The notes beneath the pieces were generated by a model. The model ran no database searches, was not told the DNA's origin, and saw nothing but the letters and a program-made list of their open reading frames with translations. DNA of 37,385 bases from a virus (Duplodnaviria > Heunggongvirae > Uroviricota > Caudoviricetes): IMG/VR virus record IMGVR_UViG_2651869691_000008. The stretch is one strand, 5' to 3'. The position numbers were made by a program, and so were the translations under genes. Positions 701 through 37,385 of this stretch are shown piece after piece. The stretch's first letter is position 1. Each line of letters starts with the position of its first letter.

Positions 701-776
<76 letters not shown>

Positions 777-829
777 GTTTAAAAGGCATCGGCGTCAGCG
801 GATGTCTGGCTGAAAGGCCTGAAGAATTT

Positions 830-903
830 GGCGCGTTAACAAAGCGGTTATGTAGCGGATTGCAAATCCGTCTAGTCCGGTTCGACTCCGGAACGCGCCT
901 CCA
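830..903 (+). tRNA. cysT: tRNA-Cys (anticodon GCA)
   Basis: GGCGCGTTAACAAAGCGG...GATTGCAAATCC anticodon loop...GGTTCGACTCCGGAACGCGCCTCCA. Confidence 0.9.
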
Positions 904-915
904 CTTTCTTCCCGA

Positions 916-1002
916 GCCCGGATGGTGGAATCGGTAGACACAAGGGATTTAAAATCCCTCGGCGTTCGCGCTGTGCGGGTTCAAGTCCCGCTCCGGGTAC
1001 CA
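916..1002 (+). tRNA. leuZ: tRNA-Leu (anticodon TAA), long variable arm
   Basis: GCCCGGATGGTGGAATCGGTAGACACAAGGGATTTAAAATCCC...GGTTCAAGTCCCGCTCCGGGTACCA. Confidence 0.9.
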
Positions 1003-1045
1003 TGGGAAAGATAAGAATAAAATCAAAGCAATAAGCAGTGTCGTG

Positions 1046-1069
1046 AAACCACCTTCGGGTGGTTTTTTT
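1046..1069 (+). terminator. rho-independent terminator of the tRNA operon
   Basis: GC hairpin AAACCACC-TTCG-GGTGGTTT followed by a T-run. Confidence 0.6.
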
Positions 1070-1154
1070 GTATTTGTATTTTGTGCAATGGCGGTTGAGT
1101 GGCGATGGTGTGGCGATATGCAGAAACAATGGTAGTGCACGTGCTGTTTAAACT

Positions 1155-1259
1155 CTAAGGATGAAGCAGAATTCTTCTGCAGCTCCTCCGTATTTCGCAT
1201 AGTGAACCAGGACCTCTGTTAAACAAAAATTTTTCTGGGATTTTTCCACTCGACTTCAT
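1155..1259 (-). pseudogene. degenerate hok/gef-like remnant (retains SLCEIR motif, hydrophobic segment lost)
   Basis: minus-strand translation MKSSGKIPEKFLFNRGPGSLCEIRRSCRRILLHP; DNA 1185-1206 and upstream leader 1290-1395 are paralogous to the intact hok locus at 2011-2430. Confidence 0.3.
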
Positions 1260-1540
1260 TTTTCCTCCTGCAATCCACCAACAGGTACCTGCGCTAATCT
1301 ATCTTTTTAATCTGACAACATCTTGGGAAAAGGCAAATTCGTCAGATTTACTGTTTTTCTGCTGCCTCGAATCCCGATGTCTGAAGCACTGATAAGAGTT
1401 CTATCTCTTTGATATAGATCTTTTTTTTGATGAATTGCACGACATATTATCGTTATGACACCTTCTTGTTAAAGGTATTGTACTCCTCATCTCGATTTTA
1501 TGATGTGGGCTATGATTGGTTAGTAATAGAGTGTATCGGT

Positions 1541-1822
1541 ATGCGATGTGGTTTATTAATGGCAATCTGCCTTTGTTTAGTATCTTTTAGCGGATATGCA
1601 GCAACAGGAAAGTCTGATGCTCAGATCAAAAAAGAAATAATTAAAGAATCCATTGAATCTTATCCAGGCAATTGTGCGTGTCCTTATAATCATGCAAGGA
1701 ATGGTAGTAGATGTGGTGGACGCAGTGCATATAGCCGTAATGGAGGGTATGACGTGGTATGTTATGAGGGTGATGTTACCGATGAAATGATCCGGCAATG
1801 GAAGCAGGAGAATGCTGAGTAA
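1541..1822 (+). CDS. small secreted or periplasmic protein of unknown function (Sec-type signal peptide, several Cys)
   Basis: ATG at 1541 gives MRCGLLMAICLCLVSFSGYAATG...; AT-rich; start could be further upstream in the 1427 ORF; function unknown. Confidence 0.4.
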   Translation: MRCGLLMAICLCLVSFSGYAATGKSDAQIKKEIIKESIESYPGNCACPYNHARNGSRCGGRSAYSRNGGYDVVCYEGDVTDEMIRQWKQENAE

Positions 1823-1890
1823 TCTCTTTTAACAGGTTTGTTGTGCGAGCATTATGTGCCGTTAACGGTACACTAGCTAGTGATAGTTCC

Positions 1891-1931
1891 AAAAAGAAAA
1901 CCCGCAGTTCTTACGCTGCGGGTTTGTTGTT
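1891..1931. terminator. bidirectional hairpin terminator (CCCGCAG...CTGCGGG) flanked by A/T runs
   Basis: stem CCCGCAG / CTGCGGG with T-rich tracts on both strands; lies 3' of hok (minus) and of the 1541-1822 ORF (plus). Confidence 0.5.
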
Positions 1932-2010
1932 CATGTCTGTGAGATAGGGTGCCACTTCAGCCAACCTTAGCAACCGATTGACGGGGGATTGCTCCCCCGT
2001 CGCGGTTTCC

Positions 2011-2151
2011 TTACTGCTTACACTGTAAGAACGCCGCAAACTCCGCTCCCCAGAAGCTCATCCGTATTTCACACAGCGAACCGTGTAGCATCCAGATGAT
2101 GAGGATTACCGTCACGCAGAACGTGATGGCCGTAAGCGATTTTTGCGACAT
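2011..2151 (-). CDS. Hok/Gef-family type I toxin (46 aa, single TM helix)
   Basis: minus-strand ORF MSQKSLTAITFCVTVILIIWMLHGSLCEIRMSFWGAEFAAFLQCKQ, not in the ORF track because <60 aa; AAGGAG RBS 8 nt upstream; SLCEIR and E.AAF motifs typical of Hok; 3' hairpin GACGGGGGATTGCTCCCCCGTC at 1979-2000 and terminator at 1891-1931. Confidence 0.6.
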   Translation of the reverse strand: MSQKSLTAITFCVTVILIIWMLHGSLCEIRMSFWGAEFAAFLQCKQ

Positions 2152-2342
2152 AGCGCTTGCTCCTTTGTTGGAGAGGCGCTAACCTATCACTTGCTTAAGG
2201 TAGATATGTTAGGGCCTCGGTTAAACAGAAATGTTTTCCGGGGCCTTTCCACATCTGGCCTTCGGGTATTCCCTCCGACCATCAGCCGAAAGGCACCCGC
2301 GCGTAATCTATCGCTTTTTTGTTACTCCGGCAATTCTGCCTG

Positions 2343-2603
2343 TTAATTCTGAGGTAAAGGCAAACTCATCTGATTGTTTCCCCTGTGTGAAGCTGGCAGC
2401 TCATGCCACGGGATACCTTCTGAAGAGTGAACGCCGGAGGTGTGTTTTGATGTGAATTTATGGAAAGCTTCCAGTGTTGAGAAGCATACGCCGCATTCCA
2501 GGTTGTTACACTGGTAATACTTTTGCCGCACGGTGTTTGAATCATTTTCCGGACGACTGGTGCGGATACGGGCAGATGCGCCACAAAGCGGACAACGGAA
2601 CAT
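2343..2603 (-). CDS. ogr: Ogr/Delta-family zinc-finger late-gene transcriptional activator
   Basis: MFRCPLCGASARIRTSR...YYQCNNLECGVCF four-Cys motif as in P2 Ogr; AAGGGAGG RBS; its 3' coding end overlaps DNA paralogous to the hok leader. Confidence 0.8.
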   Translation of the reverse strand: MFRCPLCGASARIRTSRPENDSNTVRQKYYQCNNLECGVCFSTLEAFHKFTSKHTSGVHSSEGIPWHELPASHRGNNQMSLPLPQN

Positions 2604-2645
2604 AGCGACCTCCCTTAACGTGGTGCTGCTGCTATTCTAAGTTGC

Positions 2646-3755
2646 TCACTCTGTTTCTGCTATCCATTCCGGGATTTTTGCCTCAAGCTCAAGCTGCGTG
2701 GTAAAGCCGCTGTTATCGATGGTGTGCTCGGCTTTTGCAATAATCCAGTCCTGATTATCAATCTCGCTTTTAAATCCTGTTACCGTGCCATGCATTTCGG
2801 GGTAGAGTTCTGCACGACCACATGCCAGCGTGATGGAGAATGATGCGGCTCCGCGTTGTAGCTGCTGCCACTTTGCCGCCGCTGCGCGTCTTGCTGCCTG
2901 CTCGTTCTGATAAGTCTTGCGTAACACAAACACATTGCCTTCCGCGCCTTCCATATAATCACCTTCGCGGCTGCTGCTTTTCTCCTTTTTGGGTTTTGGC
3001 GGTTTGCGGTGTTTCACGCTGACTTTTTTCTTTTTCCCGTAATTAAGATCAAGCCAGTAAGCGCGTACCCCCGTATACGCTTCGCGGTCAGCAATGCGGA
3101 ACTGATGGCGATCGCCACTGCTGCGCGTGATGGCGAACGATGGCAACGGCTGGCCCTGTGCGTTCACGCCACCGCCTGGCATAATGAATAACAGATTACC
3201 GCTTTTTACCGTGGTGATTGCGCCCAGCATTTCCGCCATGCGCGTAAGGAAGGACATGTCGCTTTCTTCGGTCTGGTCGGCGTGGTCGATTTCGATATCC
3301 ATCAGCATTTCGCTGATTTGCGGTTTCAGACCATACCGATGAGCGATGGCGGATACCACACGCTCAACGGTCACATCATGCCAGGACACCTCACGTTTAA
3401 CGTTAAATTCATCCCGAAAATCTGCGCTTCTGGCTGAAACAGTCAGCCTGTCCGGCGGTCCTTCGTGAGCGATTTCATCAACAATGTAAGTGCCTTTTTC
3501 TGTCAGCGGTTCTCCTTTCCAGCCAATGAGAACCGTCAGGCGCGCGCCCCGTGGCGGTAGCTGCAACTGACCATCCGCATCATCCAGCGTGATGGTGAGC
3601 TGGTCCGCGTCAAATCCCCGGTTGTCGGTCAGTGACAGGCTCATCAGGCGCTCTGCCACGCCTGACAGCGTTTTACCCTCCGCGAGAATATCAAAATCCG
3701 GCATTTTCACGGGGTCTGTGCCCTGACTGAGCAATTGCATGGTGGTATCGGTCAT
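2646..3755 (-). CDS. P2 gpD-like tail protein (late control gene D)
   Basis: start refined to ATG at 3755 (GGAGGG RBS 5 nt upstream) within the 2646-3887 ORF; by P2 synteny the gene preceding ogr is D; family call from position and size. Confidence 0.8.
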   Translation of the reverse strand: MTDTTMQLLSQGTDPVKMPDFDILAEGKTLSGVAERLMSLSLTDNRGFDADQLTITLDDADGQLQLPPRGARLTVLIGWKGEPLTEKGTYIVDEIAHEGPPDRLTVSARSADFRDEFNVKREVSWHDVTVERVVSAIAHRYGLKPQISEMLMDIEIDHADQTEESDMSFLTRMAEMLGAITTVKSGNLLFIMPGGGVNAQGQPLPSFAITRSSGDRHQFRIADREAYTGVRAYWLDLNYGKKKKVSVKHRKPPKPKKEKSSSREGDYMEGAEGNVFVLRKTYQNEQAARRAAAAKWQQLQRGAASFSITLACGRAELYPEMHGTVTGFKSEIDNQDWIIAKAEHTIDNSGFTTQLELEAKIPEWIAETE

Positions 3756-3912
3756 CTGTTCCCTCCCTGTGCGGCATGGTCGCATGTGCGTGCGGAGGGG
3801 GTTACTGCTTTTTGTTGTCGCCGGATCGGGAGAACGGCACAGGGGTGAGATTACGCGCGTGGTGGGTGATGATTGTTGCCGAATCATTTAACGGATACAA
3901 GGGGCTAAAGCT

Positions 3913-36383: not shown

Positions 36384-37385
36384 ATGTCGGTTCGTAAGAT
36401 TCCATCAGGTAAATGGCTTTGCGAATGTTATCCCTACGGGGCATCGGGAAAACGCATACGTAAACAGTTTGCGACAAAAAGTGAGGCGCTCTCTTATGAG
36501 CGCCGTTTAATGAATAGTAGAGTTGGAGACGAGTTTCAAGATGGTTCTGGTCCTCGTCTTTCTGAGTTGATTGCTCGTTGGTTTGAGATGTACGGTAAAA
36601 CCTTGTCCTCTGGTGCAGAGCGCAAAGTCAAACTTGAGGCGATTTGTTCCAGGCTGGGAGATCCATTTGCTTCTCAGTTTGACAAAAATATGTTTGCTAC
36701 TTATCGGGAAAGAAGGCTATCTGGAGAATGGAATCCCAAGGGGAAGAAAAAACTTAGTGAAGCAACCGTTAATCGCGAGCAGTCATATCTACATGCTGTT
36801 TTTGCCGAACTGAAGCGCCTTGGGGAGTGGTCTGGTGAAAACCCCCTGACTGGTATTCGCAAGTTTCGTGAGGAAGAAAAGGAACTGGCGTTTCTGTATG
36901 TAGATGAGATTGAGCGCCTTCTGATTGCGTGTGATGAGTCACGGAATAAAGATTTGGGGGTTGTTGTCCGTATTGGGCTTGCGACGGGTGCTCGGTGGAG
37001 TGAAGCAGAAGGATTAAAGCAATCTCAAGTACTGCCCGGTCGAATCACATTTGTTAAAACTAAAGGAAAGAAGAACCGCACTGTACCGATTTCACCTCAA
37101 TTGCAGGCTATGCTTCCTAAAAAACGAGGAGCGCTATTTTCACCATGTTATGAGGCTTTTGACGCTGCAATTAAGAGAGCGAAGATCGAGCTTCCTGATG
37201 GGCAATTAACTCATGTGCTACGTCACACGTTTGCCAGTCATTTTATGATGCGGGGCGGAAATATTCTTGTGTTGCAAAAAATACTGGGGCATAGCGATAT
37301 AAAAATGACTATGCGTTATGCGCATTTTGCTCCAGGTCATTTAGAGGCTGCTGTTGAATTGAACCCTTTTGACAATAGAGGGTAA
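36384..37385 (+). CDS. int: tyrosine integrase (P2 Int-like)
   Basis: 333 aa; C-terminal ...HVLRHTFASHFMMRGGNILVLQKILGHSDIKMTMRYAHF catalytic R-H-R-Y region; stop at the window edge. Confidence 0.9.
   Translation: MSVRKIPSGKWLCECYPYGASGKRIRKQFATKSEALSYERRLMNSRVGDEFQDGSGPRLSELIARWFEMYGKTLSSGAERKVKLEAICSRLGDPFASQFDKNMFATYRERRLSGEWNPKGKKKLSEATVNREQSYLHAVFAELKRLGEWSGENPLTGIRKFREEEKELAFLYVDEIERLLIACDESRNKDLGVVVRIGLATGARWSEAEGLKQSQVLPGRITFVKTKGKKNRTVPISPQLQAMLPKKRGALFSPCYEAFDAAIKRAKIELPDGQLTHVLRHTFASHFMMRGGNILVLQKILGHSDIKMTMRYAHFAPGHLEAAVELNPFDNRG

Follow-up and report, generated by a model that had tools for sequence, protein, structure and literature searches.

Hok of plasmid R1 is a peptide of 52 aa, and the hok/sok locus of this plasmid is one of the systems with which the cassette described here can be compared. 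Closer relatives are present in the databases, as RefSeq holds the identical peptide under the label 'Hok/Gef family protein' (WP_000078920.1) and the genome of phage P88 annotates the same gene as gp52 (NC_026014), so that the word 'unannotated', which a first-pass annotation made from the DNA alone had applied to this ORF, has to be dropped. An enrichment of hok genes in prophages and tandem hok islets have been described previously, and according to that preprint 98% of these islets have peptides of one 60% identity cluster and local duplication seems to be their origin (bioRxiv 10.1101/2025.08.07.668861). A literature search for hok in connection with ogr or P2-like phages gave nothing specific, and the papers on P2 defence hotspots made no mention of hok.

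The window, i.e. the whole stretch of 37,385 nt that was analysed (IMG/VR record IMGVR_UViG_2651869691_000008), contains ogr, gpD and tail genes in the order known from P2 with the integrase gene at the opposite end, and Pfam profiles recognise Ogr_Delta (52.4 bits) and Phage_GPD (63.6 bits). The element is a P2-like prophage (Peduoviridae, Xuanwuvirus, P88-like) in the 3' half of leuZ, and the region described here is its ogr-side end (Table 1). Its attL core comprises leuZ from the anticodon loop to the 3' end of the gene and a further 69 nt including the leuZ terminator, and a second, identical 124-bp core is found 169 nt beyond the int stop in strain AR_0013, which is 100% identical. In the empty site of BL21 (L011) position 1071 is joined directly to the sequence that follows attR, and for the majority of the matching genomes in the window search the match is limited to 1001-1071. 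As empty-site strains have nothing from position 1072 onward, both hok copies are phage DNA enclosed by the two att repeats, and their earlier placement at the prophage-host boundary does not hold. The comparison with the int-distal junction and with empty-site strains, which had been proposed along with the first-pass annotation, located the leuZ core. Two copies of GTGGCGAT next to attL are candidate arm-type sites at which the integrase would bind, and GTGGCGAT as well as GTGACAAT are also present directly past the int stop (pattern positions). Read from attL, the phage DNA starts with this arm carrying integrase-site-like repeats, followed by a dead hok copy with a scrap of ogr, a cargo slot and finally hok, ogr and gpD.

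Table 1: Features at the ogr-side end of the leuZ prophage and its integrase gene (positions in the window).
Feature	Position	Strand	Remark
tRNA-Leu (leuZ)	916-1002		
attL core	948-1071	+	124-bp perfect direct repeat; true prophage-host junction
Two GTGGCGAT repeats (1099, 1110)	1099-1117	+	candidate integrase arm-type sites, P' arm
Relic hok locus	1144-1308	-	5' leader with -10 box, joined directly to the last third of a hok CDS; pseudogene
Trace of ogr 3' end upstream of the relic	1321-1348	-	NLTNLPFPK; intact ogr NQMSLPLPQ
93-aa Cys-rich small protein, N-terminal hydrophobic segment	1541-1822	+	phrog_27544, 193.7 bits
Intrinsic terminator of hok mRNA	1898-1925	-	found in the sequence
fbi-like 3' box (GGCUGAAGUGGCACCC)	1947-1962	-	complementary to the mRNA 5' end
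3' UTR hairpin, conserved	1979-2002	-	directly after the hok stop
hok CDS, 46 aa (MSQKSLTAITFCVTVILIIWMLHGSLCEIRMSFWGAEFAAFLQCKQ)	2011-2151	-	Pfam, PHROG, RefSeq
Predicted Sok-like antisense unit	2157-2256	+	TTGCTC (2157-2162), 17-nt spacer, TAACCT (2180-2185)
Leader ORF in the R1 mok frame, 19 codons	2195-2254	-	SD GAAGG, ATG 2254-2252, TAA 2197-2195
Predicted hok mRNA 5' end (GGGUGCCUUUCGGCU), tac-like element	2284-2298	-	start of the Rfam RF01794 alignment
Predicted hok promoter	2305-2333	-	TTGCCG, 17-nt spacer, TAGATT; read from the sequence; starts 10 nt after the ogr stop
ogr, 86 aa	2343-2603	-	Pfam Ogr_Delta, residues 3-49
Integrase	36384-37385		other end of the element

The peptide of the intact locus scores 30.1 bits against Pfam HOK_GEF PF01848 (cutoff 22; residues 7-44) and 82.8 bits against PHROG 251 'MokW-like host killing', and from these profile matches it can be assigned to the Hok/Gef toxin family, as had been proposed from its motifs. 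The other elements named at that stage were found again, namely a good ribosome binding site (SD AAGGAG at 2165-2160, 8 nt ahead of the ATG), the 3' hairpin and the terminator. The CDS is strongly conserved with about 9 variable columns out of 140, compared with 28 out of 80 in the leader. Over its full length (2298-2141) the leader aligns to the Rfam sok model RF01794 with 47.9 bits (E = 7.7e-9), a score below the gathering score of 59, and position 1 of the model falls on the predicted mRNA 5' end at 2298. The promoter proposed for this transcript (2333-2305) begins 10 nt past the ogr stop codon at 2345-2343 and the leader is therefore located outside of ogr, contrary to the earlier view that it runs into the ogr 3' end.

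Folding of the RNA, another of the checks suggested at the outset, gave the expected closure, as in the MFE structure of 2298-1888 the 5' end (2298-2284) is paired with the 3' box (1962-1947) at z = -8.15. In an RNAalifold consensus a local 5' hairpin was chosen in place of the fbi closure, and the fbi structure was therefore tested explicitly. The tac/fbi helix is 96% paired across 15 loci, in all of which the tac-like 5' element, able to pair either locally or with 1947-1962, is unchanged; because this side is invariant there is no double compensatory change in the helix, and its support consists of complementarity and one-sided changes only. A second helix between leader and 3' UTR (helix 6, ucb/dcb-like; about 2201-2186 with about 1978-1964) is 92% paired in the 15 loci with compensatory double changes in 3 pairs, and the 3' hairpin (helix 14) shows compensatory changes in 2 pairs, so that some covariation accompanies the RNA complementarities. 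On the opposite strand the predicted Sok RNA would span about 2192 to about 2256 (both ends approximate). The hexamers of its promoter align with what we take to be the position of the R1 sok promoter, its -10 hexamer is TAACCT in 8 of 9 loci and TAAGCT in the ninth (L014), and the 71-nt RNA of the Sok region folds with z = -4.67. Since a consensus promoter scan left both the hok and the sok promoter under its threshold, their placement here follows from alignment to the presumed R1 position together with conservation. We infer the transcript ends and the expression of Sok from this arrangement, and the intact locus is predicted to encode a type I toxin-antitoxin system of the hok/sok type.

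Within the leader an ORF in the frame of R1 mok starts about 45 nt farther upstream than what is presumably the mok start of R1. In the window allele it ends 43 nt before the hok ATG, and a canonical mok overlapping hok is absent from this allele. The same frame is closed at 2197-2195 in P88 and L006 and continues to the end of hok in L002, L005 and L015, where it has 78-87 codons; thus, the mok overlap is polymorphic within the subfamily, and with a closed frame it is uncertain whether hok can be translated in the manner of R1.

The second copy keeps no Sok promoter, hok SD, ATG, TM helix, 3' UTR or terminator. Its segment 1209-1308 is 72% identical to 2211-2317 of the intact locus and 1144-1208 is 70% identical to 2014-2082 (about 71% at the DNA level overall), and as these two homology blocks abut, a single 128-nt deletion corresponding to 2083-2210 must have occurred. 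The decayed copy reported earlier, with loss of the hydrophobic segment and about 120 bp, is therefore real, and one clean deletion, by which the Sok promoter, the hok start and the membrane helix were lost, accounts for it; its extent has been redrawn to 1144-1308 plus 1321-1348, instead of 1155-1259 plus a leader up to about 1395. The identical deletion junction is found in relic variants that are 86-93% identical to one another, and the same structure occurs in 646 genomes and in lineages diverged by about 13%. The 34-codon ORF created by the fusion (1155-1259) is not conserved and gave no Pfam match, the relic as a whole gave no Rfam match, the O157 relic carries ATA in place of ATG, promoter and ORF are degraded, and the relic is more diverged (about 87% identity) than the adjacent segment with the 93-aa ORF (95-97%). 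By these features it is a pseudogene.

Upstream of the relic, 1321-1348 matches the last 10 codons of ogr (2348-2375) at 22 of 28 positions (z about 4). The paralogy that had been reported to continue to about 2430 holds for this block; the similarity of 2376 to about 2430 to the relic side did not exceed that of shuffled sequences (p about 0.07). The 1321-1348 block is absent from hok loci outside P2-like contexts. The trace of ogr retained by the relic speaks for an origin in another P2-like phage and not for a remnant of a previous integration into the chromosome. The IMG/VR contig L017 contains, in this order, int, the P arm, a single core, the relic and hok and has no 5' half of leuZ, which is the attP configuration. 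No att copy was found between the relic and the intact hok. Lying between attL and attR and being joined to int in L017, the relic is carried by the phage and does not represent the remnant of an earlier integration in the form in which this had been worded. A search for distant homologues (blastn, 1072-1420) in 5,426 E. coli genomes returned only deleted forms and no intact progenitor, the phage collection gave for 1130-1420 just three matches of 72.5%, all to intact hok leaders, and an IUPAC pattern searched in GTDB species genomes yielded 23 chance matches in unrelated taxa and none in Enterobacteriaceae. As no intact progenitor was found, the origin of the relic stays a scenario. Phage record 520873, which has the same integrase, was considered as evidence from a packaged genome and rejected, as it is a cut-out prophage that includes yecA and ends inside hok.

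The region is ordinary, since both cassettes are located inside the phage. The intact cassette, annotated as a Hok/Gef gene beside ogr, was detected in 1545 of the 5426 complete E. coli genomes; it is already known and common, and its novelty is low. From about 1890 on, the block of hok and ogr (with gpD where present) is found again in phage P88 (98.3% identity) and in prophages inserted at ihfA or serS, and the module that is common to P2-like phages with other att sites has its end at about 1889-1891. The suggestion that the phage itself carries a hok module close to its att site has thus been borne out. The ogr product matches the 72-position NCBIfam profile PRK09678 with residues 1-61, and residues about 62-86 form a C-terminal tail beyond the Ogr/Delta homology. 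Between the relic and the hok terminator a variable slot is occupied by the gene of the 93-aa secreted-type protein (hypothetical protein WP_001303543.1 in RefSeq), which is phage cargo (moron); L006 has other genes in this slot.

An integration of the phage into a resident chromosomal hok locus, with the junction falling in the leader of hok close to the 3' end of ogr, had been suggested by the relic-like sequence that extends past the hok promoter into the last 10 ogr codons. This reading is refuted by the att repeat and by the comparison with empty sites, as the att repeats are located at 948-1071 and beyond int, empty sites have nothing from 1072 onward and the same hok-ogr junction sequence is found at ihfA, at serS and in the P88 genome. 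The relic (1144 to about 1400) could instead be chromosomal debris of an older leuZ prophage that does not belong to the present phage and is not mobilised with it. It is located 73 nt from the att core, similar to the att-adjacent intact hok of the P2-like prophages L002 and L022-L024, its ogr-tail scrap would be expected at a prophage end, and it is present in no INPHARED phage record. A new phage entering leuZ would however insert between leuZ and the debris and not past it, the relic and the intact hok have no att copy between them, L017 links int to the relic via one core, and among the matches listed no genome has the relic without P2-like genes, all of which makes such debris very unlikely.

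One might also think that the relic has been kept for a new function, for example as part of the P' arm of attP with binding of IHF or Cox or as a decoy for the Sok RNAs of other loci. The same structure in 646 genomes and across lineages about 13% diverged and the position next to the arm-type repeats would fit to this, yet the relic evolves faster than its neighbours (87% versus 95-97%), its ORF and promoter are degraded and it has lost the stretch complementary to the 5' end of Sok, so that we regard this idea as very improbable. A somewhat more serious doubt concerns the intact copy, as the window allele might be translationally silent or cryptic like several chromosomal hok loci of K-12, its mok-type leader ORF being truncated at 2197-2195 as in P88 and L006 and open in L002, L005 and L015. 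Against this, the hok CDS is strongly conserved, no damage is seen in the SD, the start codon, the 5' and 3' boxes or the antisense promoter, the allele with the closed frame is widely distributed and occurs in the isolated phage P88, and the structure could still be opened by a short leader ORF that ends before the SD of hok; a silent allele is thus rather unlikely.

With high confidence we regard the region as the end of a P88-like leuZ prophage carrying a hok/sok-type cassette together with a phage-borne hok pseudogene that most likely came from another P2-like phage. In the proposed model a hok mRNA of about 405 nt (2298 to about 1893) would be kept in a closed form by base pairing between its 5' end and the 3' box, and a short antisense RNA would be made from the strand opposite to the leader. 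Once this antisense RNA is no longer replenished, either after loss of the prophage or after a shut-off of transcription by an infecting phage, the 46-aa membrane toxin would be translated and the cell would die. We infer toxicity and biological role from this model, the most likely role being prophage stabilisation and/or defence by abortive infection. The most probable source of the relic is the junction of hok and ogr in another P2-like phage, the donor of the leuZ att-int module; redundant after the recombination, it could then have been inactivated by the one 128-nt deletion. The att-int module may have been exchanged between the two P2-like phages with one illegitimate joint in the ogr 3' end. 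In hok loci that are otherwise nearly identical, the variation is concentrated in the segment of the leader that Sok would target, with changes in step in the 3' UTR partner of this segment, and diversifying selection may act on the Sok target, giving each co-resident prophage a private antidote so that toxins are not cross-neutralised. These two modest readings, the relic with its ogr scrap as the footprint of an att-int swap and the Sok-target variation as a result of diversifying selection for private antidotes, are tentative proposals and, in our view, less likely than not.

The intact locus, a known and widespread phage-borne Hok/Gef cassette, has little importance beyond annotation. Three corrections follow for this prophage family: its attachment site is the 124-bp 3' segment of leuZ, the hok cassette is part of the phage, and so are about 0.8 kb of relic and cargo, and the relic, so far unannotated, is a pseudogene and should not be called a toxin. 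The polymorphic mok frame and the variable Sok target covarying with its 3' UTR partner could be of interest for work on the specificity of type I toxin-antitoxin systems and on the mosaicism of P2-like phages. If the module swap took place, such relics could be used to trace changes of the integration site in these phages.

With hok/sok of R1 the cassette shares a small toxin that has a TM segment and the motifs SLCEIR and E.AAF, an mRNA of about 400 nt with a long leader and a 5' end complementary to the 3' box, a predicted antisense promoter over the hok SD and start, and the 3' hairpin and terminator. It differs in being phage-borne and not plasmid-borne, in its 46-aa toxin and in an Rfam score under the gathering score, and unlike mok of R1 the leader ORF of the window allele does not overlap hok. 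Among named NCBIfam subfamilies the best match is HokA of E. coli K-12 (NF007290; 35.8 bits, E = 6e-9), and as this is far under the equivalog cutoff of 89 the peptide is not a HokA orthologue. The Hok of Stx-converting lambdoid phages (PHROG 251) is a 46-aa peptide of the same subfamily with about 82-84% identity to 1947-2319, but its gene adjoins lom without any ogr and has another terminator and another sequence upstream of the -10 box. The gene of P88 and of other Xuanwuvirus/P2-like prophages is the same gene at the same position (WP_000078920.1 / WP_000078916.1); P88 encodes the same peptide, and its DNA is 98.3% identical from 1891 onward, across ogr and into gpD. A relic copy is missing from P88 and from the prophages at ihfA or serS, in which the slot near att is either empty or occupied by different cargo (Com and a DNA methyltransferase). 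Like the tandem hok islets, the prophage contains two hok-derived loci within 2 kb. Unlike in the islets, these copies are only about 71% identical in their DNA, one of them is dead and the dead one has its own scrap of the ogr tail, which argues that the relic is better read as a probable recombination scar between two P2-like phages than as a duplication.

Using the int-distal junction and a prophage-free strain we located the att core at 948-1071, outside the hok leader, where the first-pass annotation had placed the prophage-host junction; its sequence observations are largely right but this leading reading is wrong. E. coli AR_0013 (NZ_CP032204.1), which carries a matching prophage, is 100% identical to window 1001-2650 and repeats 948-1071 perfectly 169 nt beyond the int stop, and beyond this distal repeat the chromosome resumes toward yecA. 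At the empty site of BL21, position 1071 joins directly to the sequence found after the distal repeat. The perfect 124-bp repeat, which is leuZ from the anticodon loop through its terminator, and the empty site thus show that everything from 1072 to int is the inserted element, with both hok copies inside it. P2-like prophage genes run from ~2343 onward, and 5,425 genomes match window 1001-2650, the majority only over 1001-1071. For this leuZ-integrating phage family the att core is unusually long, covering the 3' half of leuZ and the terminator. Repeats of the GTGGCGAT type are found on both arms of the core (window 1099-1117; locus L004 3560-3800(-)) and are candidate integrase arm sites. 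In AR_0013 the distance from leuZ to the int stop exceeds that in the window by ~1.2 kb, so an indel somewhere between leuZ and int distinguishes the two prophages.

Features of the window around the hok locus and at the element borders
Feature	Position	Strand	Remarks
pgsA and tRNA genes glyW, cysT, leuZ	window start; tRNA genes 701-1002		
ORF93	1541-1822	+	93 aa, Cys-rich, N-terminal hydrophobic segment; phrog_27544
Terminator	1898-1925	-	of hok mRNA
3' hairpin	1979-2002	-	downstream of hok
hok ORF	2011-2151	-	46 aa; Pfam HOK_GEF, PHROG 251
SD AAGGAG	8 nt before hok ATG	-	read from sequence
Predicted sok promoter	2157-2185	+	TTGCTC-17-TAACCT
Variable regions	2163-2238 and 1933-1967		ten-locus hok alignment
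hok promoter	2333-2305	-	TTGCCG-17-TAGATT; read from sequence, working from the Rfam 5' end
ogr	2343-2603	-	P2-like prophage gene; stop 2345-2343
gpD	2646-3887	-	P2-like prophage gene, then tail genes
Integrase	36384-37385		ends exactly at window end

The 46-aa ORF, described before as unannotated, is in fact named 'Hok/Gef family protein' in RefSeq (WP_000078920.1) and listed as gp52 in the P2-like phage P88. It matches Pfam HOK_GEF (30.1 bits, curated cutoff 22) and PHROG 251 'MokW-like host killing' (82.8 bits), and its best NCBIfam match, HokA, reaches 35.8 against an equivalog cutoff of 89. On these scores it belongs to a phage subfamily of Hok toxins and is no HokA orthologue. The Rfam sok/hok-leader model aligns full length to 2298-2141(-) (E = 7.7e-9) with a score below the gathering score. 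Folding of the 411-nt transcript pairs its 5' end GGGUGCCUUUCGGCU with GGCUGAAGUGGCACCC at 1962-1947 (z = -8.15); such closure of the 5' end on a 3' box is typical of hok mRNAs. When the structure was checked against 15 related loci, the closure helix was 96% paired with one-sided changes only, and compensatory changes were found at three pairs of a second long-range helix between leader and 3' UTR and at two pairs of the 3' hairpin. For the 5' end RNAalifold favours a hairpin formed locally, which may match the 'activating' pairing that hok mRNAs are known to adopt as an alternative. The predicted sok promoter falls at the position of its counterpart in plasmid R1; its -10 box is kept in eight of nine compared loci (TAAGCT in the ninth, L014), and the predicted Sok-like RNA of ~65-70 nt is well structured (z = -4.67).

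The sole hok/sok-type feature failing in the intact locus is mok, the leader frame coupled to hok in R1. A leader ORF in this frame has a conserved SD and ATG (2254-2252(-)) and overlaps all of hok in L002, L005 and L015 (78-87 codons), while in the window allele it has 19 codons (2195-2254(-)) and is closed, as in P88, by a TAA (2197-2195) in the variable region, which leaves 43 nt to the hok ATG. The closed frame raises the real, if rather unlikely, possibility that this hok allele is poorly or not translated. Across ten near-identical P2-like hok loci, variation concentrates in the part of the leader complementary to Sok (28 variable columns of 80) and in its 3' UTR partner region, against 1 variable column in the first 60 nt and about 9 in 140 in the CDS. 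At three leader/3' UTR pairs both partners have changed together. This variation may reflect diversification of antisense specificity. From the terminator into the CDS, a hok locus adjoining raiA in strain MB07081 (L014 2499-2912) shares 95% identity with the window. Its leader differs, however, and the 5' end (GGACACC) lacks complementarity to the 3' box of the same locus (GGCACCC), which is apparently a recombinant within the cassette.

The second copy aligns to the intact locus in two blocks, 1209-1308 to 2211-2317 (72%) and 1144-1208 to 2014-2082 (70%). As the blocks abut, the relic differs from the intact locus by a single clean deletion of 128 nt (equivalent to 2083-2210). Lost with it are the promoter and 5' end of Sok, the membrane helix of the toxin, and the SD and ATG of hok; the relic has no 3' UTR or terminator either. 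The same junction is found in 646 E. coli genomes, in variants that share 86-93% identity. The fused ORF shows no conservation, and in O157:H7 its ATG is lost. The relic has also diverged further (~87% identity) than the adjacent ORF93 segment (95-97%); it is a pseudogene. The proposed continuation of leader homology into ogr holds as far as 2375, where a 28-nt block upstream of the relic (1321-1348) matches the last ten codons of ogr at 2348-2375 (22/28, z about 4); past 2375 the similarity shows no excess over shuffles (p about 0.07). The block is missing where hok lies in a context that is not P2-like, and the Ogr residues encoded by its counterpart fall outside the Ogr/Delta homology region.

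The relic had been suggested to be left from an earlier integration. A newly arriving phage, however, would insert itself between the tRNA gene leuZ and any remnant of that kind, whereas the relic is situated to the phage side of attL; no att copy was found between relic and intact hok. Moreover, IMG/VR contig L017 (34,888 nt) has the order int, 106 nt, single core, relic, ORF93, hok, ogr and lacks the leuZ 5' half, an attP (or tandem-unit) configuration in which the relic is joined to int. We therefore rejected chromosomal debris. The most economical origin is that two P2-like phages recombined. One, a leuZ-integrating phage, would have supplied the att-int module along with its hok and ogr tail, the other the part with cargo, hok, ogr and gpD, and the redundant hok would then have decayed. 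As no intact progenitor of the relic was found, the decay step stays a scenario.

The alternative proposed before, a hok module brought by the phage beside its att site, is borne out by the block from ~1890 on (hok, ogr, and gpD where directly next), which adjoins ihfA, serS and leuZ and recurs in P88 with 98.3% identity. Of 5426 complete E. coli genomes, 1545 have the 1890-2345 segment, at up to seven places each, and the narrower cassette (1947-2319) adjoins lom in Stx-converting phages (~82-84% identity). By this distribution the cassette is phage cargo. The slot from att to the hok terminator varies in content. L002 and L022-L024 have nothing there, L015 and L027 have Com and a DNA methyltransferase, the window has the relic and ORF93 (of the phage protein family phrog_27544, 193.7 bits), and L006, a prophage at the same att site, has the relic with a TagO-like and a zinc-ribbon protein. 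In O157:H7 (L001 4873-6120, ATCC 43888; Sakai prophage Sp13) an IS30 element has inserted at a point corresponding to window ~1873, which has removed hok, ogr and part of gpD and left the relic and ORF93 in place. In other P88-like prophages (L002 4971-6554, L015 1439-2372, L027) a GmrSD-type restriction endonuclease separates ogr from gpD, or the Com and methyltransferase (Mom-like) pair separates att from hok. In strain STEC367 (L013 517-2768) a related hok cassette has as neighbours an ogr/Delta-like gene in the opposite orientation, an integrase and a toprim protein, possibly the setting of a P4-like satellite.

Prophage-borne hok, hok islets and the very gene found here have already been described or annotated, and the finding of the cassette with its relic is ordinary. 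The hok/sok locus of plasmid R1 is the paradigm for its mechanism. By this analogy a stable folded hok mRNA would be held silent by an unstable antisense RNA, and prophage loss, or an infecting phage that shuts off transcription, would let the toxin be made, stabilising the prophage and/or aborting infection. We infer this mechanism for the window locus from the R1 paradigm together with hok/sok action as summarised in preprint 10.1101/2025.08.07.668861.
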